A DNA stretch of 64,000 bases from Octopus vulgaris. Its lineage: Eukaryota. Shown in pieces: positions 1,167-64,000 of the stretch (position 1 is its first letter; every line of letters starts with the position of its first letter). The stretch is taken from the NCBI GenBank assembly GCA_951406725.2, contig OX597825.1, forward strand, positions 89,094,001-89,158,000. Reading direction: 5' to 3'. The notes under the pieces were generated by a model that was not told the DNA's origin, ran no database searches, and worked only from the letters and a program-made list of their open reading frames with translations. The position numbers and the translations under genes are program-made.

Positions 1167-2400
1167 TTTGAAAAACTCGTAATTGTTTAAAATACATTTA
1201 TTTACATATATACCAAACTAGTGTCAACAATACTTTTTGTTTATCAATGGTAAAACTTTAAAATTATGAATGAGCAAAAACATCTTTAAAAGTTTCAATA
1301 TTGACAAATTAAAATGTTTCAATGTCAACGAATTGAAATGTTCAAAACAGATAAATTTAGTATTGTGATGGGAACCAGGATAACCACCACTTTTGCCAAC
1401 CTTGTCATTGCATGCTTGGGAGTGCAAATAAACGAACACGCTAGACTGAAATTTGGAGGCAACTTCCAAAAATACTTACTCACCAACTGGAAACGCTACC
1501 TGGATGACTGTTTCATCCTATGGTCACACAACCTTAAACAACTCTCAAAATTTAAAAAACTTAATCAACAGCATTGACAACAGTACCCAGTTTACAATGG
1601 GATACTGCCACAAACAATTACTCTTCCAAGACATCTTAATCATAAAGAAAGATACTGAAATTGAAACCGACATCTTCTTCAAACCAACGGACTCAAAACA
1701 ATATGTTCTATTCTCCCAAAACATACTAAATTGAATATACCCTTCAACTTAGCGAGGAGAATGTGTACGGCCAATCAAAACCGAACTTCATCAAATAAAA
1801 CGAGATAACCCTTTAAGAGGATCAACCAACTGGAATGACTGATGACTGTCTCCACAAGGAGGCCAACCAGGCAGAACGACAAGCTTGACCACCGGAAAGC
1901 AAGACGTCACCAATATTTTAACTAATCAAAAATCAGATCTGCTCTCAGGAGAAATTATAAATACATCTGATCCCAAAACATACTACCACAAGCAAAATTT
2001 TCTACGGAAAGAGGATCATAGAAACTGTAAACCAAATTCCCTTTCTTTAATATTTCATTTCTCCTTTGGTTTTTCCCTCTTAACTCAGTATGAAAAATTA
2101 ATGAGCCTTGTACATTCAAACAAATTGATATACAGTTTTTACATTATTGACTGCCATGAACATTTTAACTTGAACCTGTCCTTCTAATTCATAATGCTAA
2201 ATTTATCTATTTTGAACATTTTAATTTGTCAAAATTGAAACTTTTAAAGACGTTTTTCTCATTCATAATTTTTAAGTTTTATAATTGATAAACAAAAAAA
2301 TATTGTTGACACTAGTTTGGAATATATGTAAATAAATGTATTTTAAACAATTACGAGTTTTTCAAAAACACATTTTCCTATATTTTTTCTTGCGTAGAAA
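1167..2400 (+). mobile_element. Penelope-like element (PLE) relic: degraded RT fragment with an inverted 5' copy of its 3' terminal repeat
   Basis: Frameshifted translation 1368-1760 gives MGTRITTTFANL...WKRYLDDCFILW...FTM...LLFQDILI...TDIFFKPTDSKQYV, typical of PLE RT (YLDD core, TDxxxKPTD thumb). 1167-1368 is a reverse-complement copy of 2189-2366. Confidence 0.8.
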
Positions 2401-33521: not shown

Positions 33522-33841
33522 CATCTTGGGCAAGTGTCTTCTGCTATAGCCCCGGGCCGACCAATGCCTTGTGAGTGGATTTGGTAGACGGAAACTGAAA
33601 GAAACCTGTCGTATATATGTATATATGTGTATGTGTTTGTGTGTCTGTGTTTGTCCCCCTAGCATTGCTTGACAACCGATGCTGGTGTGTTTACGTCCCC
33701 GTCACTTAGCGGTTCGGCAAAAGAGACCGATAGAATAAGTACTGGGCTTACAAAGAATAATTCCCGGGGTCGATTTGCTCGACTTAAGGCGGTGCTCCAG
33801 CATGGCCGCAGTCAGATGACTGAAACAAGTAAAAGAGTAAA
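33522..33841 (+). mobile_element. SINE family B (5'-truncated) with internal microsatellite
   Basis: TTGGGCAAGTGTCTTCT...GCCTTGTGAGTGGATTTGGTAGACGGAAA, TA/TG tract, ...GAGACCGATAGAATAAGTAC...GTGCTCCAGCATGGCCGCAGTC. Homologous to 49883-50327 and 60967-61165. Confidence 0.8.
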
Positions 33842-53877: not shown

Positions 53878-55138
53878 CTATGGCCAGCCAAACAGCAAAC
53901 CGTAACCAAGCAGATTGTGGTAAGGACGTTATTAGATAAGCATTGAGTGTGAAAGATGCGAGGGGAACTACAGGAACATAGGGAGTTGTTGCAAGCAGAT
54001 TGATTTTATTCTTTGGTTGCCGTGCGATTACCACAAGGCACGTTATCATGGTGAAGAGAGATGCAGCCAATATGATGATTGCCCACCAACTTTGAGCGTA
54101 GACATAGTGACGTCCATGAATTGTCAACACACATAGAACTACAGATGATATTATGTAGACAATCAATGAAATACTGAATTTACGCCAAGACCTTTCGCTC
54201 GGTTCACAACAGTCATTGGAAAATTGAAATAAGCTTCCGAAGCTGCTTCCGCTTACGATACTCGATATCCGTTGGTACGTGGTGCTGTGGTTACTTCCAC
54301 TGACGGATATCATGGGAGATGTGTCTTGTAATTCAGTGCAGATAACCGATTTGGATTTTTGTGTTGCAAATGTCTCTTTAGCTTCTACATTCTGTTGATG
54401 AACATTGTTAATATATGAATTAGAATCTCCTTGTTTTGTAAATGAATCAATGCTTGAATAAAAATGTGGATCATGTCTATTTAGACGATAGTTTTTGTAA
54501 GTTCTATATCCAGTGTTATTAATAAAATCTGTAGATGCCATGCGCAATGTTCTGATGTCACTTATATCTTCATATTCTTTATACAGTCCAACAATTTCAG
54601 AATCGTACCGAAGGCAAAGGACAGAGATGCTAACCACGGTGTAGGCAGCCAGTGTTCCAATAGCCATCGTGTCGATTAAAGTTTCAAGCTTGAAAACCAT
54701 TGCAATTGTTCCTGAGGTTAGACCCCCCATGAAAACTGCAATGGCTGGTGATCTAGTTAGTTTAGTTACAAATGATAAACATTTGAATAATATATGGTCA
54801 TCTGCCATAGAATATATTATCCGTGATATTGAATAAAGGCATCCGAACAAAGCAGCAGACAGGCCTAACATACCACCGATTCCTATAACGTAGTTCGAAC
54901 CAAATATCTGCCGGGCTTCGTAAGCCTTTGGTAAAGCAGCGCGATCTTGTAGCTGATACCAAGGGTAGGCAAGAGTGATAGCCATGGCTACACCGAAATA
55001 TAATACGAAGCAAATGATGAGTGTTGTCACAATACTGACTGGCACCACTCTGCTGGGATCTTTGCATTCTTCACTGGTAGTTGCTACAGCATCAAATCCA
55101 AGAAATGCGACGAATAAAGTCGCTGCACCAGCTAGAAT
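53878..55138 (-). CDS. Cationic amino-acid transporter (SLC7A1-4/SLC7A14-like, APC superfamily), large internal exon
   Basis: Acceptor TTTATTCTTTACAG|ATT (phase 0), donor G|GTAAG, 1261 bp open. ILAGAATLFVAFLGFDAVATTSEECKDPSRVVPVSI, SRIIYSMADD, MAIGTLAAYTVV, ARQP...PYVPVVP...LNAYLI...WLRFAVWLAIG are hallmark CAT motifs. Confidence 0.95.
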
Positions 55139-57636
55139 CTGTAAAGAATAAAAAATAAGTGAATTTCATTAAAAATAGAAATGAGAGCTGGAAAAGCAAA
55201 CAGGTTTATTGAATTTAAACTCAGTTCTTTTTAAAGGAGCCGAAAATGCATCGAAATACAACGTTCAAAGTGAAATATTTTGTGTTTATATAATAAACTT
55301 CTTTGTGAGAAGTGAGACAATTAGCATTTGATTGTTGAGGGCCAGCAAAGGTGTGCTTCTCAGTCACTGAACTTGCTATAAATAGCAGCCAAGTTCCCAC
55401 AAGCTAACAGTCTATATCCTTTAAAAGTGAACTGATGCATTATCTTATAGATCTGAAAAGACGGGTTGGTCACATCTAGAATACATTTGGTAATGCTTCA
55501 TCTAAACCGGAAATGACGTGCTATTGACTGAAAATAGCGGCCAATCACCCATGCATTACTTACTCCCGTCTATAATAAAGATGGATGCATTACACAACGT
55601 AGACCTCAAAACAAAACAAAAAAACTTGGAATTGTCACAACAAGAAATCTTTTATGGAAGCTCTATAGGATCAACCAAGGGAAGGAATAACGGCTGCAAC
55701 ATCAACTCCAGCTCACGTAAAATCAAGGAGATGGAGACGGTGCGTTGATGCTAATCTTCGTCTCAAAATTCGCCGTTTCGGATGATTTTTAGGTGAAGCA
55801 TTATGGTTAGATTTAGGAATCAGCTGCTGAACGCCTGCATTTCCTTTTGACAGTACAGAGAGAATAATATATGACTACTTTGCTTCCATGTTATTCCTGT
55901 CAAAACGTGCCAGCCATTTGGCTTATGTTGTAGAAAACAAATCAAGATGTCTTTCTGGCGACGTTCCCTTTGAAGGAGAATCGGTGAATCGCTTTTCTTG
56001 TCTCTGGAGTTGAAAAGTGCGAACGAAATGTTTGAGGCTATATTTTCTCGTTTTAAACTGAAAGCAAGGCACTGGCTGTCGTATAGTCGTGACGTTAGCA
56101 TCGGCAGATAAAGATATATTTAATATATTTATAGAATATTTGGGGGTGGGGGGTGTTAGAAAGTTTATCGTGGTTACAATGCAGAAACCAGTGTACTCTC
56201 CTCAATGGGATGAATACCTTTTTTCTAGAATTGCAGAACATTGCTCTGATACTAATTTTGGAAGAAGGAAAGCTATTTCATAGCAGGGGAGAAATGATAC
56301 TTAGAACACTAGTTCTATGACGAAATATCAAGAGAAGTCTCAAGTGAGTTAAGGAAACACTTGCAACATTAAGTATATCAACTAACGATAACATCAATAT
56401 AAAAATCACATGAATATTTGTTTCGGGGACAAATGTTACAAGGAACAATGGAATGAAATAGCATTTAGGGCACGTCAGCAAGTAAATGAACATGCATAAA
56501 AGCGGACATGAATATTTAACTGCGGTGGAGTTCCATCAATTAAATAAGTCGCAAAGCGAAATGTTAAGCAAGAAGTGATGTTACCCATTACAAGGCATCA
56601 ACATTGCGAAAGTTAAAAAAGCGATAAAAGAAGCAAATCTGCACATAATGTCTGAAAAACCTGAAATCTATTTATCAACCTCATATTCACTAAACATAAA
56701 TCATTTCCCGGTGCAAAGCCTGCGTGTGCCAGGGCCAGAAATAGTTATACTTTCTTTTTTTCTGATGATGTTTTTCTTTTCTGTCTAAGTACAGCAAATT
56801 TTAGATAATCAAACAAACTTTTTGTTTTTTTCTCATTGAGTGTAAATCACGCTGGACGCTTAATATATAAGTTATTCTTTATTTAATAGAATATTTACCA
56901 GATGTTATACATATTTTAGAAATCTTTATTCAAGTTTGGGTTGGTTTTATCGTTGAAATGTAGCATATGTTAGGCATTTATGCATTATATGATTTAGAAT
57001 TATATCAAGATAAATGCTATTACAAAACTCTTCAATCCGGAAACAATGTTTAGACTTGTCATCGGCAATTTAACAGCGCAACAAATTGCGATAAAACATT
57101 CAATTATCAAATCCATTGCATACTAGTTTCAAGACTGACAATTATTTTAACAAATCTGTCAGTAACAGACATACAAAATAAAAGTTTTCAAATTTTGAGA
57201 TTTTGTTTTTCATCTTCGTTTGAGTTATATTATAATATGGCGGTTTGTCACTGTGTTTCTAGGATACTACCTGACATTATTTTCTGAAATACTCAGGAAT
57301 GCAAGATGTTTTCCAATGTTTATATTCCACTTAATGTTTTATTTCACATATGGCAACAGAACCAAATGCTTGCTAATTTGACGCATGGAGGTGCAAGAGT
57401 TTTGCAGGAACTGTAAATGGGAAGGTAAAATGTTAAGAGAGCAAACACGGACAATATAGGACGTTGTGTGCTGGCATATCACGAAAATCCACTTGGCTCG
57501 TCAGCACTTCATTTAGTGAATGATAAAATATAAACACAATTTCATATTTCACATTCCCCAAGACCGAGAGCTCTATTTAGAAATGACAGACCCCAAAACA
57601 TAACAATAATGCATATTTGAAACTATATGGCAAGCG

Positions 57637-57679
<43 letters not shown>

Positions 57680-57680
<1 letters not shown>

Positions 57681-57802
57681 CTTCTTCCCGCCACTGATTG
57701 GAGCAACATGAAATAAATTGCCTTGCTGAAGAATACAACACAGCCCGGTCCGGGAATCGAACTCACTATCTCATTATTGTGAAACGGACTCTAACAACGG
57801 AG

Positions 57803-57803
<1 letters not shown>
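57680..57803 (-). mobile_element. tRNA-headed SINE 5' fragment between TA tracts
   Basis: Minus GAGTTCGATTCCCGGACCGGGCTGTGTTGT...AGCAAGGCAATTTATTTCA; similar to 62232-62390. Confidence 0.55.
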
Positions 57804-57861
<58 letters not shown>

Positions 57862-58089
57862 CAGTAATGCAATACAAAGTATTGCCTTCCAGTAAAAAGT
57901 AGCCCATTTTCCGGGTGTTTCATCTTTCAGATGTTCTCCCTGGAGGTAGGACGGTTTTTTTCTCTATTTTGTTGCACACACGCATTTTTGCTAATACATA
58001 CGCGGTGAAGCTACACATTAGCGTCGTATTTTTACGTTCGCTATTTCCAGTAAATATCGGTACTTAGTTGTGCCATTTATTTACTAATT

Positions 58090-58129
<40 letters not shown>

Positions 58130-58692
58130 TATCTGTGCATTTATTTGTATGCAGGTCTCTATATGTTTATATATGTGTGTGTGCGTGTATATATATATAT
58201 GCTAATTATATACATATTTATATTCTGTTTATGAATGTGTGTATGTGTGTACGTATCTGTGTGCAGTGTGTGTGGTTTTGTATCTGCGTACTATTTTTCG
58301 AGCTTGTGTAAATATAGATTCACTTGAAGACAAAATTGCCTTTTGGACATTCTTTACATACATCAGTAATACCGTTCTCACTGGTAATGCTATCCCTGCA
58401 TATTTAAAAAAAAAAGTAATTGTTTTTTTCTCCCAAATAAATTGCACTTCTTATTTGAAGATTCGTTAAAACTATAGGATGTCATTCATGCACTCAAATA
58501 AGAGCCGACAGCATCTTTTAGCTGAAACAGCTGTCAACTAATGAAGTTCATTACATAACTATTTCTTTTGTCATGTGATATCATTTTCTTCTTACCGTTC
58601 TGTCCTCCTCAAACACTTTGTTCGGAAACATACGTATACTGAGTACTACAAGTTATGTGCCTCGCAATGCCTAAGCTATATATTAAGACTTC

Positions 58693-59260
<568 letters not shown>

Positions 59261-59859
59261 CGTCCAATGTTACATTTTGCATCATTTGCAAACATTGTGG
59301 TAACCTTTATATTGGGAAAACAGGCCAATGCCTTGCTGGACGCTTTCAAGATGACATTGGAAACATGTATGCCGGGGCGACCTGCCTCCACCCAATTCAA
59401 GACGGTAGGTTATTGCATTACTCACCTGTGTACACTACCTCCTGTTACCAAGGATCCAACGAAATGGAATGGATAACGTTACATATTTGAAACTGGCACC
59501 ACCATGTCACCGACATTTTCCTTCCTGCTGCTACACCCACTCTTAGATCATGAAACTCCTTTTTAGCCTCAAACTCTCTTCTCACCGAATTTTTCTCTTC
59601 ACCTCGCTTTCGTTTTTGTTAAAATTTCCTCTTCCTCAATTTCTGTTCCCTTCTATTCATCTCACTCAGTATCTGTCTTCTACTACTTCTTTACCGTGTA
59701 TGAAGGTGCCACGATCCTGCGTTCCTCATCAGTTGCAGCAGTTTTTTTTAAGGGGATTTGAAATCTACTGATTCTTTTAACAATTTTAAATTTTCCATGA
59801 AGAGCGACTCTGTCAGCAATAATATTTTTCTCGATTTTATTATCTACCAGCTTAAAAAG

Positions 59860-60474
59860 CTAGCTGCTGCGGAGGAGGGCTAACTGGGCCTGCGGCACAT
59901 AACTAAAGAGAGAAATAAGTATAAAGCGTTTATTGGTACACTACCATATCGGATTTATATCACAGTGTATCACATTTGGAGAATTTCGTATCACTGTGAC
60001 ATTCGGAAATGACTATAAAACATTAGGATAAAAAAATATTCTTAGTTTTACCATTTGGCGTGAGTATGAAGAGATTGTTGTCATTTCCAACTCTGAAGCA
60101 ACCAAGATAGAGCTGGCCATAGAAAAAGCACCGCTGCATGAGGTGAAGTGCAACAATTTTGAGTGATTGTCCTTGACTCTTGTTAATTGACATTGCAACA
60201 TTAACTCTTACTGGAAATTGAAGTCACTTGAATTTATAGGGCATGTCTGCTGGAATCAGTGGAATTCTTGGACCAAACACATTTTCATTCTTTCCTTGTC
60301 CAGTGAAGATTGTTGCTTCCAAATATGTGGATGCATTTCCCTGACAATCAGTCGTGTTCCATTGCACAGCTTTGAGAGATCTAAATTTCTCAAAAGCATG
60401 ATTGGAACTCCTTTCTTCGATCTCAGTTTGTGAGAAGGCATTCCAGGAGGATTGAAAGAGTTGAGAAACTCAGT
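59860..60474 (-). mobile_element. Helitron 3' fragment (PIF1-family helicase C-terminus)
   Basis: EFLNSFNPPGMPSHKL...GVPIMLLRNLD...LCNGTRLIV...PRIPL...LQFPV...AMSINKSQGQSL...GQLY...TKNIFYPNVL*. The lower boundary is uncertain. Confidence 0.9.
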
Positions 60475-60506
60475 AGTTATTCTTATATATATTATATGTG
60501 TTATAT

Positions 60507-60922
60507 AGTTCTATATTCAAGAGATGAGGAATTATGTACATTGTTTACATTATTTACATTTGACAGATATTTGTCTTTATCTTTTTTGTTGTTAACACAA
60601 TGTTTCAGTTGATATACGCCCCAGCCTTCGTGTGTCTTGGGGAAATTTGGAACATGGGTTCTCATTCCTAAGGTATTTTAACCATTACACCACATACCAC
60701 GGGAATATGGTGTAGTGGTTAAGAGCGCGGGTTACTAACTACAAGCTTTCGAGTTCGATTCCAAGCAGTGACCTGAATAATAACAATAATAATAATATCG
60801 AAAAATACCTTAGGAATTTGAAGCCAGTTTTGAAATTTCTCAAGACACTTGATGAAGGCTGGAAGGTATATCAGCTAAAACGTGTTGACAACAAAGATGA
60901 GAACAAATATCCGTCAAATGTA

Positions 60923-60928
<6 letters not shown>
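60507..60928 (+). mobile_element. tRNA-headed element with a hammerhead-like 3' region, preceded by an inverted copy of that region
   Basis: 60549-60679 is the reverse complement of 60802-60928. A-box TGGTGTAGTGG at 60708-60718, B-box GAGTTCGATTCC at 60751-60762, TTGATGA-A-GGCTG...CAGCT-AAAACG at 60849-60882. Confidence 0.7.
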
Positions 60929-60966
<38 letters not shown>

Positions 60967-60969
<3 letters not shown>

Positions 60970-61165
60970 ATCTGTTTGTCCCCTACCACCGCTTGATAAC
61001 TTGTGTTGGTCTGTTTACGTTCACGTTAGTTAGCAGTTCGGAAAAAGAGACCAGTAGATAAGTACCAGACATAAAAAAACAGAACTGGTGTCGATTTGCT
61101 CGATTAGTAATCTTGAAGGCGATGCCCCAGCATGGGCGTAACCTAATGACTGAAAAAAATAAAAG
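60967..61165 (+). mobile_element. SINE family B 3' half
   Basis: TGTTTGTCCCC...GCTTGA.AAC...TTAGCAGTTCGG.AAAAGAGACC...GTCGATTTGCTCGA...CCAGCATGG aligns with 33648-33835. Confidence 0.75.
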
Positions 61166-62231
61166 AACCACGAAATTCCTAACTAAAACTTTGAGCTAAG
61201 GGAGGTAAATCTTGCGCACTTATCTCACGAATACTATAGCGCGCAGACCTCTCGAGGCCGCTGTACCTGCTAGAAATAACAATCCAAATGCTTTTAAATC
61301 AGATATCAGCGTTGGATGTTGAAGAACAAAACGAAGGGCAAATTTTCAATCCTGAATCAGTCTCATTTTCAAATAAGATATATATCTATGTAGAGCAAAT
61401 GTAGACTGAGATGCAGGAACCTCAGACGAACGGACAGAATTTCGCTTTTATCACACACACACACACACACATATATATAATGTGTGTGTGCGCGCGCGCG
61501 TGCGTCGGTGCGCCTATGTATGCATAGACACACATATCTATACAATATATGGAAGTGTATATAATGTGGTTGAGTGTGAGTCTGTGTGTTGTCGTGCCAA
61601 TCAGATGTGCGTATTGGTATGAAAACCACAAAGTGTACGTGGAATCCGATATTGAAAGAAGTATTTCAATATGGAGCTGACAATTTGTTGTAAGATAAAC
61701 ACGGAAGCCATATTGTCAAAAGCAGAAGAAAATGCGGGGATTAACACAGACGCGTCATTATGTTAATAGAAATGAAATGCTTCTAGTATTTGCTCTGTTC
61801 GAGTATTACTTATCAGTAAATATAAATAGCAGCTACACTTTTAACTTGGCGATAAATTTCTACAAGATTTCTATGAGTTGCTGTATTTAGACGAGGCCTG
61901 TAAGAAAACGAAACCTACAGAGACTGTAGATTATTGAATGCTATACAGGAACCAAGATTGTCTGTGTTCAGTTATTCCTGCACTTTAGAGAGTTCCAGAG
62001 ATGGGTGTTTCTTCACATATAGTTTTACTTTTAAATTACCAGACACTTTAATTAAACTCACGTATGATAGAGGTATTTCATTTTTCAGACATGTAACGAC
62101 ACAGGTGCTTTTTTGCGTACCCCCTTTCGCGTATCTTTGCAATTTCTCCTCTGGACGTTCTCTTCTTCCCCTGATTTTTCCAATCATAAATTTTCTCCGA
62201 GCGTCAATCTGATACATTCACTGTGTAATTC

Positions 62232-62385
62232 GTGGTTTCAATTCCTATACCGGGTGAGGCGTTGCCTTCTTGAGCAAAACACTTCATCCCACGATTCGTC
62301 GCGATACCTTCGACACCGTGCACCTGTTCGGTAAACGTCGATTTGAGGGACAGAGTGAGCCTATGTGCGGCACAAACATTTAATC

Positions 62386-62390
<5 letters not shown>
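62232..62390 (+). mobile_element. Degenerate tRNA-headed SINE fragment
   Basis: GTTTCAATTCCTATACCGGG...TTCTTGAGCAAAACACTTCAT parallels the 57680-57803 head. Confidence 0.45.
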
Positions 62391-62417
<27 letters not shown>

Positions 62418-62508
62418 AAGGTTCAAGGTGCAGGAAGTTGTTCAGAAGTTCTGCTAGCTAGGAAGCATATGTAGCCTTGGTTTTATCAGCTCCATTCCCT
62501 AATTTTGG

Positions 62509-62539
<31 letters not shown>

Positions 62540-62558
<19 letters not shown>

Positions 62559-62790
62559 AATGTCTGTCTGTCTGTGTGTTTCCCTAAAACGTGAGAACTA
62601 CACAACCAATTTCATTCAAATTTTACACATACCTTACTTAGGGTCCATGTAGTTTCATGGGCAAAAGAAATGTTCAACTTCTTGCCTAGAGCGAGCCCAT
62701 AGCAATATCATATCTTCTACACTATTTCAGTATTACGTGTTAAAAGTGAAACAAAAATATTTCTCAGATGGTTTCACTTTAACAATAAAA
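62540..62790 (+). mobile_element. Probable non-autonomous Helitron 5' region
   Basis: TATATATAAA.CTGAGAATGTCTGTCTGTCTG...AACCAATTTCATTCAAATTTT resembles invertebrate Helitron 5' ends with (GTCT)n; the TC start is obscured by (TA)n. Confidence 0.4.
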
Positions 62791-63229
62791 ATAATAATAA
62801 CAATTGAATTATATGTAGTAAGTGATAATTAAAATCAAACTAAAGTATGATATAATCGTAACATACAAAAGTAAAAAAGCAATTGGTATAAAATTGCATC
62901 AATGATTTGAACTTGAATAAATGGTTTCACATGAATGGGAATGAATTAAAAATAAAATTAGCGTGCAGAAATGGAATAATCCAGATGGATAATAAAAAAC
63001 TAAATCAAAGAAAAGACTATTGTCTATAAAGTATGCAATGTAGAGAAAAAAGAAGAACTAACAATTCCAGTCTGTTAATTGTCCGGGTGTTGTTAGTTGT
63101 GATAAGACGGTGAATTTCTTTCTCTCTCTCTCTCTGTGAGAGAGAGAGAGAGAGAGAGAAGAAAGAAAGAATGAATTGATATGATTTCGCGCGAGGCGTT
63201 TGCCTCCACGTGTTGAAACCTTTTGAAGA

Positions 63230-64000
63230 AGGTGAATTGACACTCTAGTCAAAAAAGCGATTCGTCGCTAATTGTAAGGGAGGTGTTCTTTGAGGAGAAA
63301 CTCAAAGAATATGAAAAGCTTTTCAAAAGGGAGGGTGATAGCGTGAAGCTAATCCCCCCTCCCGCGAAAACAAAAGAGGATAAAGAAAGCAAGACGGTGG
63401 CATATAGAACCCAAGACAGGAGTACAAGGAAACTGGCAAGAATAGAGATAGACGAAATTGAGAAATGTCTGGGAGACATAATGGGAAAAATAACTTATGT
63501 GAGTGAGGTAAGAAATTTGGTACGGTGGAGGTGAGATGTGCAACGGAGGAAATTGCAGCCTCACTGGCTACCACCGTACTAAGAGCCGAAAAATTCACAA
63601 TGTGGCCCTCATACAAGGGAAGAAGAGGGGTTCGAGTTAAAATCCCGAACATACCCCCAGAAGTTAAAACAGAATGGCTGGCAAAAGCCATTCTAGGAGC
63701 AGCAGAAGAGGAAGTGGAGGTGGAATCGAAAGGGGTCAAACGTGGTGAACTGGAAAGGATATGGGGTGGAATTGTGGATGTTGGCCACAACAGAAGACAT
63801 TGAAAGGCTTCCCTACAGAATAGAGGTGGAAGACGAAAAGACCCTCAGCGTAATCGTAGAGGGGAGAAAACCCAATTGTTACTTGTGTGGGACAAAGGGG
63901 CACATTAAAAAGGAGTGCCCGTTATATGAATTCGTAGCAGAGTGTGAGCAGGAAAAGGAACTTGAAGAAAAGAATAATACATTAAATGAGAAAGAAAGCA
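63230..64000 (+). mobile_element. Tx1/L1-like LINE ORF1 (gag-like), frameshifted, continues beyond the window
   Basis: KTVAYRTQ...EKCLG...GTVEVRC is homologous to 8088-8270; RVKIPNIPPEV; LSVIVEGRKPNCYLCGTKGHIKKECP (CCHC knuckle, ~63844-63921). Confidence 0.85.

Follow-up and report, generated by a model that had tools for sequence, protein, structure and literature searches.

On balance, we favour the interpretation that the insertion described here is a solo pLTR fold-back, the pLTR being the terminal repeat of an autonomous retrotransposon of Penelope/Poseidon type, and that this pLTR starts with a tRNA-derived cassette of A and B boxes which is likely to be the element's Pol III promoter. 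To a wider proposal we give about even chances: that an autonomous protein-coding retrotransposon is read end to end (about 2.9 kb) by Pol III from a captured tRNA promoter, that terminators have been purged from its ORF, that thousands of SINE-like by-products record its transcription start, and that it bridges, as a living intermediate, the Penelope elements and the SINEs that bear a hammerhead, such as Sm-alpha. The insertion lies in a 64-kb stretch of octopus DNA (the window, to which all window positions refer) and occupies 60504-60931 when compared with the family majority sequence. It is a dead, ordinary family member. Its features are collected in Table 1, where family positions are numbered from the first base of the tRNA-like head (+1).

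Table 1. Features of the insertion and its junctions, in window coordinates.
Feature	Position	Strand	Remarks
pLTR copy, inverted, 5'-truncated	60504..60679	-	family +102..+271; 85% to family majority
optional PLE tail, ~30 nt	60504-60536		on the left (inverted) arm of the window copy
head piece, inverted, short (inner part of the fold-back)	60678..60698	-	family +2..+22
pLTR copy, forward	60697..60931	+	about -4 to +238; 88% to family majority
tRNA-like head	60701..60773	+	acceptor stem decayed
Pol III A box (predicted)	60708..60718	+	fits promoter pattern quoted in PMC8969392
Pol III B box (predicted)	60753..60762	+	sequence pattern
(AAT)n linker	60776..60796	+	length differs among copies
place of the PLE's first in-frame ATG (+113 in pLTR-body tandems)	60816..60818	+	ATT in the window copy
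minimal type I hammerhead motif	60844..60886	+	C3>T, G12>A, no cleavage triplet
(TA)n microsatellite, right junction	60927..60966	.	flank or target, not family tail
neighbour outside the element: broken Pif1-type helicase frame	60026..60498	-	probable Helitron relic

An initial annotation, made from the letters of the window, had described a tRNA-like head with A and B boxes, an (AAT)n linker and hammerhead words, followed by an arm with an inverted copy upstream. All of these are present at the positions in Table 1, and the two arms are identical in 107 of 127 aligned columns. The inverted head piece is a weak match alone (E 0.68), yet it is contiguous with both arms, and its presence on the left side makes the insertion one fold-back centred at 60699-60700. 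About 80 nt are absent from the inverted copy, whose hammerhead core is short by 3 nt; of the two 3' ends common in the family, the forward copy has the inner one, and it carries no tail. A shortened A-box/B-box pattern gives 1 match in the 64-kb window, against 0.01 expected. ARAGORN reported 0 tRNAs in the window, and Rfam gave no tRNA or hammerhead match in window 55000-64000 or in 13 loci, with only microsatellite-driven miRNA matches. As neither motif is called at the insertion by these programs, the tRNA-like head and the hammerhead are both degenerate.

At the right junction, the annotation had ended the repeated region in (TA)n. This microsatellite is not the family's tail, since it is present in just 1 of the 30 best copies, the window copy itself; the family's true 3' end is the ~30-nt extension, which at this insertion lies on the left arm (Table 1). 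Any target duplication at the window copy is obscured by its TA-rich flanks. At the left junction, the annotation's Helitron relic stands as a helicase relic (Pif1 2B domain, E 4.5e-18), while the Helitron label is drawn from known Helitron anatomy; the relic looks like a chance neighbour. Elsewhere in the window there is a broken frame at 58810-59260 (minus strand), which resembles a mariner-type transposase, and a broken frame with a CCHC zinc knuckle at 63200-64000 (plus strand), presumably like ORF1 of a LINE. A decayed RT fragment at 1362-1713 (plus strand) belongs to another PLE family and has 32-39% identity to the ORF of the PLE studied here, and an interspersed repeat at 60967-61166, directly after the (TA)n, is 74% identical to window 33642-33836.

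The linkage of head and arm that the annotation had proposed holds across a large family. A head-plus-arm query gave 4,906 candidates in the 2.8-Gb genome, of which 40 were scored. A random sample of 58 x 10 kb (580 kb) contained 6 insertion loci, none extending to the ORF and too small a number for mapping copy ends, and extrapolation from these 6 loci gives about 29,000 insertions genome-wide (95% interval 11,000-63,000). Mean divergence of copies from the majority is 6.9% (n=114).

An autonomous PLE carrying the same arm was found by following copies upstream. Four of the first 30 loci extend upstream of the head into a 3' UTR, two of them (L026 and L028) further into a reading frame. Thirty loci were fetched with an ORF fragment, one of them the query's own, and without exception these continue into the 3' UTR and into the pLTR or some part of it, many with deletions. 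The majority unit assembled by this upstream extension is 2,652 nt long, with a 783-codon frame that is open from its first base and a stop codon 33 nt before +1, and the pLTR is 271 nt. A pLTR piece lies directly 5' of the body in 16 of 30 loci, and in the pLTR-body tandem the frame reaches 848 codons, with its first ATG at +113, and passes through the hammerhead. The annotation's view of a tRNA promoter fused to a PLE-type ribozyme end is thereby replaced: the head belongs to the autonomous PLE's own pLTR, a short distance behind the stop codon of its ORF. The ORF contains an RT (Pfam RVT_1, E 2.5e-10; PDB matches were weak RT matches only). For its C-terminal part, GIY-YIG/HTH_animal look-alike clusters at 0.96-0.97 provide a lead, borne by 12-21% of cluster members; Pfam had no match for this endonuclease piece itself or on four shorter frames, and the phage collection searched had no match to the element. 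By every feature tested, the family is a member of the EN+ PLEs, with a single ORF of RT and C-terminal GIY-YIG, pLTRs in partial tandem, an inverted 5'-truncated copy and a 30-40-bp tail at one end. Domain order and the lack of a zinc-finger linker, rather than a tree, suggest placement in the Penelope/Poseidon clade.

The insertion footprint of the family was examined in 120 entries, of which 6 were dropped (duplicates or short flanks); two insertions are entered twice among the 114 that were left. An inverted arm is present in 77 of the 114. The tail is on one arm in 52 of 57 cases, on neither in 5 and on both in none (0/57), and the family's 3' ends fall at +238/+244 or at +269/+271 of the pLTR. 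Direct repeats of at least 8 nt (mode 12 nt) flank 59 of 114 insertions, compared with 32 of 600 mismatched pairs. The annotation had counted an absence of target duplications as support for its reading, and the opposite is observed. It had also named tandem or inverted arrangements as support; the inverted ones predominate, and the copies, being solo or inverted, are not tandem arrays of retrozyme type. An inverted arm, a tail on one arm and target duplications are together in agreement with the accounts of PLE insertion in the portions of PMC8557442 and PMC3846280 available to us. A DNA transposon (MITE), with the arms as its terminal inverted repeats, might also be suggested by the inverted arms and target duplications. 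We rejected this explanation and regard its probability as negligible, because copies differ in the length of the arms, in the inner junction and in the position at which the inverted arm begins, because the inverted arm is lacking altogether in 37 of 114 entries, and because the sequence constitutes the 3' end of an RT ORF. A tandem retrozyme was likewise rejected, head-to-tail short units being rare among 90 head-anchored matches (L142/L143 is an example).

The family majority has all features of a minimal type I hammerhead as these are set out in the available text of PMC4209133: an extra nucleotide between 9 and 10.1, G10.1-C11.1, and a palindromic 15.2-16.2. Its core is intact, CTGA(T/A)GA...GAAAC, as the annotation had anticipated for a consensus, and the whole core with its triplet is retained in 36 of 114 copies. 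With the two substitutions and the missing triplet listed in Table 1, the right arm of the window copy is predicted to be inactive. The hammerhead fold was not obtained on free folding of the arms, and the imposed majority fold has -11.2 kcal/mol against a minimum of -12.6 kcal/mol. The cleavage triplet (+183..+185; window 60881/60882) is missing from 28 of 114 copies, short and ORF-linked alike, through an exact in-frame deletion of 3 nt, which may reflect slippage or an active non-cleaving variant. Hammerhead position N7 (+154; window 60853) is T or A in 81 and 29 of 114 copies respectively, also a conservative Asp/Glu change in the overlapping frame. As a separator of short from ORF-linked copies this site was dropped, as the difference did not hold in a comparison of 72 with 69 copies.

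In a comparison with 25 distinct host tRNA hits of six isotypes, two tRNA-Arg match the head best, being identical to the family majority at 49 of 73 positions. The A and B boxes of the majority fit the pattern of PMC8969392 with a spacing of 33 nt, and the cloverleaf is decayed. It is plausible that the head derives from an old tRNA-SINE inserted behind the ORF. A separate set of many slightly diverged tRNA-Lys(TTT)-like copies (L337-L360) is found among the top Rfam tRNA matches and is possibly a tRNA-Lys-derived repeat.

Most copies begin at the head. Exact 27-mers are counted 559 times at -143, 707 times at -43, 4,126 times at +14 and 5,346 times at +103, so that loss amounts to 21-23% per 90-100 nt on either side, compared with 83% over the 57 nt that hold the head's start; the head pattern has 4 degenerate positions and the others none, which inflates the head count somewhat. 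Among head-anchored matches, mapped for the first 90 of the 4,126 and all from contig C1 (L121-L150, L211-L270), 72 of 90 end in -8..+12, with a mode at -7 and a hard edge at about -6. The class running past the head consists of 15 matches assigned by script and 3 reassigned by eye, and a few of the 90 are near-duplicates or the same insertion taken twice. The density of ends is about 7% per nt in -8..+12, against about 0.25% per nt on either side. Where the end is scored at -7, T is found at -9 in 18 of 18 copies and A at -8 in 17 of 18. These are the letters that a fold-back would add and not those of the template, implying that copying of the template ceased at about -6. The base at -6 is a G after a pyrimidine, 13 nt 5' of the A box, which presumably fits the usual start sites of Pol III.

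The same edge is seen in templates that run from pLTR into ORF, where it fits a transcription start and an RT stop alike. The tail-body junction has 112 exact matches, which resolve into 90 loci with 92 crossing copies (L369-L458); 8 of these copies reach the head's start, and 7 of the 8 stop there. Most enter the body by just 10-300 nt, and as such some cDNAs were primed downstream of the tail. Upstream pLTRs running past the head, seen in 3 of 16 in one set and 1 of 92 in another, require multimeric templates or template jumps. In L273 the upstream pLTR runs from +4.

A hairpin of 9-10 bp at -14..+10 (-9.6 kcal/mol) coincides with the site of copy ends and could stop RT. The head might then be a passive fragment of an old SINE, and the short copies ordinary 5'-truncated PLE copies, made by RT stalling or folding back at this hairpin of a long RNA. 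We judge this distinctly unlikely. Palindromes at pLTR 5' junctions are known from PLEs without tRNA heads (in the part of PMC3846280 available), deletions within the head are seen in many ORF-linked copies, and diagnostic differences between short and ORF-linked copies are lacking: between 72 and 69 copies, respectively, no site differs at p<0.001, and weaker flags lie within the anchoring pattern or near the 3' end. However, the ends pile up on the far (5') side of the hairpin with their hard limit at about -6, and the letters at -8 and -9 come from the fold-back. Stalling would also leave unexplained why the A and B boxes match the consensus exactly though the cloverleaf has decayed, and why the unit is depleted of TTTT. 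The element's own bases just before the head, at -14..+10, resemble the fossil of a head fold-back that has a 2-nt insertion, which hints at a short, folded-back copy as the source from which the head was captured.

The sense strand of the majority unit contains 0 TTTT, the Pol III terminator, in its 2,652 nt. The number expected is 2.6 under a synonymous shuffle (p 0.036) or a first-order Markov model (p 0.08), 4.95 under a third-position model (p 0.002) and 4.6 under a base shuffle (p 0.007). A second PLE family of the same genome has 9 TTTT in 2,370 nt at a T content of 22.7% vs 21.8% (p 0.001), and in single copies the counts are 18 per 48.6 kb against 187 per 52.8 kb in the second family (0.37 vs 3.5 per kb). 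In eight distant PLE frames taken from metagenome contigs, TTTT occurs 50 times in 10.4 kb, near their own expectation. Besides the second family, which is Neptune-like, the controls are these eight fragments, whose T content is higher; no close sister family is among them. The deficit is suggestive rather than conclusive, and is modest against the strictest nulls. The second family (L301-L330; seed L078:5100-5900, minus strand) is younger, with about 97% identity, and has a zinc-finger linker; a simple scan of its 3' region did not find the canonical hammerhead pattern.

If two promoters were at work, Pol III would make short head-initiated RNAs and hence the short copies, and Pol II, from an internal or a host promoter, the full-length translated RNA. 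We consider this unlikely, if by no means far-fetched. It accounts equally well for the 5' edge, needs no translation of uncapped RNA, and is consistent with the few upstream pLTRs that run past the head and with the Penelope of D. virilis, for which PMC2377424 describes a TATA-less, LINE-like internal promoter. In contrast, it leaves unexplained that TTTT is absent from the whole ORF and not just from its start. Transcription of the whole unit by Pol III, which we prefer, has in turn to be weighed against the fly Penelope promoter, the hairpin, the few upstream pLTRs that extend beyond the head, and the argument, made in the sections of PMC10886601 available, that Pol III is not processive enough to serve autonomous elements; the translation of uncapped RNA that it calls for also counts against it. 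Contigs of four sequencing runs with two organism labels cover an ORF-end-plus-pLTR copy; they carry no information on start, strand or level and were left out of the evidence.

In the mechanism that we propose, transcription by Pol III would begin in an upstream pLTR, at the G at -6, and continue across the whole 2.65-kb unit, which is free of terminators, and on into the next pLTR. AT-rich DNA would be nicked by the element's own RT/endonuclease, and cDNA would begin inside the RNA, at +238/+244 or +271. In vitro, the Poseidon protein of the anole primes cDNA at two RNA-internal sites early in the ORF that bound the tail, requires RNA 3' of the priming sites, to ORF nt 172, and assists a hammerhead cleavage that is dispensable for insertion (PMC11167929, in the text available). 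Priming in the upstream pLTR would give copies of ~250-280 nt that end at the RNA's 5' end, where the cDNA may fold back on a 4-5-bp palindrome to form the inverted arm. Copies that bear the ORF, which are rarer and randomly truncated, would come from priming in the downstream pLTR, and a complete run from there would restore the promoter, as L273 may exemplify. The SINE-like copies would as such be by-products that mark the element's transcription start.

The initial annotation had instead seen an independent, self-propagating tRNA-SINE with a PLE end, copied in trans. About 80% of head-bearing copies do resemble SINEs of 250-280 nt with A and B boxes and target duplications, and a tRNA-SINE that bears a hammerhead has its precedent in Sm-alpha and Sj-alpha (PMC2770079 and PMC6765202, as far as their text was available). 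Such a SINE may even be the ancestor of the pLTR, given that PLE bases -14..-3 look like a fossil fold-back. Yet the same head is carried by an autonomous element, the comparison of 72 short with 69 ORF-linked copies reveals no diagnostic bases and no SINE-specific sublineage, and the 3' end is neither LINE-derived nor a simple repeat, lying at one of the family's pLTR ends. The tail ends at ORF nt 159, and if the requirement for RNA to ORF nt 172 reported in the available text for the anole also holds here, short copies could not be templates. We regard a separate tRNA-SINE as very unlikely. A SINE mobilised by a LINE was rejected on the grounds that the head is shared with an autonomous PLE and that the 3' end is not of LINE type. 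The octopus family is SINE-like solely in its short by-products.

The accepted view is that an autonomous retroelement depends on Pol I or Pol II, whereas the elements known to have Pol III promoters are short and non-autonomous. If true, transcription of a Penelope from a tRNA promoter would break this rule and raise the testable question of how an uncapped, hammerhead-bearing RNA is translated. The element would also fix the transcription start of a PLE, such that the in vitro model of internal priming becomes checkable against thousands of genomic copies, and suggests one route for the origin of hammerhead-bearing tRNA-SINEs. For annotation, repeat libraries would call these copies SINE and miss the PLE link. 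In the literature searched, no PLE with a tRNA promoter in its pLTR was found; Dfam, Repbase and SINEBase were outside the scope of this search, and a SINE entry for the short form may already exist. The accessible text of PMC13282606 reports many unclassified SINE and Penelope families, and its supplements may bear on the octopus family.

Among described elements, Poseidon_Ac (PAc) of the green anole, from the Penelope/Poseidon clade, is similar in its single ORF of RT and C-terminal GIY-YIG, which starts in the pLTR near the hammerhead, in two 3' ends separated by the tail, and in AT-rich targets; the sections of PMC11167929 available mention no tRNA-like promoter. The ATG of the octopus element lies ~35 nt before the hammerhead core, making the whole motif coding, unlike in Poseidon_Ac. 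Pen2a of Adineta vaga and its relatives share direct and inverted pLTRs, a tail on one arm, target duplications of 8-10 bp, an ORF start within the pLTR and palindromes at the inverted junction. For these a TATA/Inr-like promoter was proposed, and the word "tRNA" is absent from the main text of PMC3846280 as available.

Both a tRNA head joined to a hammerhead and Pol III promoters in the terminal repeats of non-autonomous TRIMs are already known. The former is found in Sm-alpha and Sj-alpha of schistosomes, which have a tRNA-derived Pol III head followed by a hammerhead and a high copy number; in contrast to the octopus element they are non-autonomous, SINE-like tandem repeats, for which the available parts of PMC2770079 and PMC6765202 name no autonomous partner sharing the head. 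Animal non-LTR retrozymes also have a type I hammerhead and a proposed link to PLEs (PMC7229834 and bioRxiv 10.64898/2026.07.22.740005, in the text available), and differ in consisting of tandem hammerhead units, whereas the octopus copies represent the pLTR of the PLE itself, either solo or head-to-head. In Cassandra, Helenus and Ajax (TRIMp3), a small-RNA-derived Pol III promoter lies within the terminal repeat and is thus regenerated in each round. These are non-autonomous LTR elements of at most 1.3 kb, and their autonomous partners are expected by the author, in the sections of PMC10886601 available, to use Pol II and not to share the repeat. In the octopus, it is the autonomous element itself that carries the promoter repeat.
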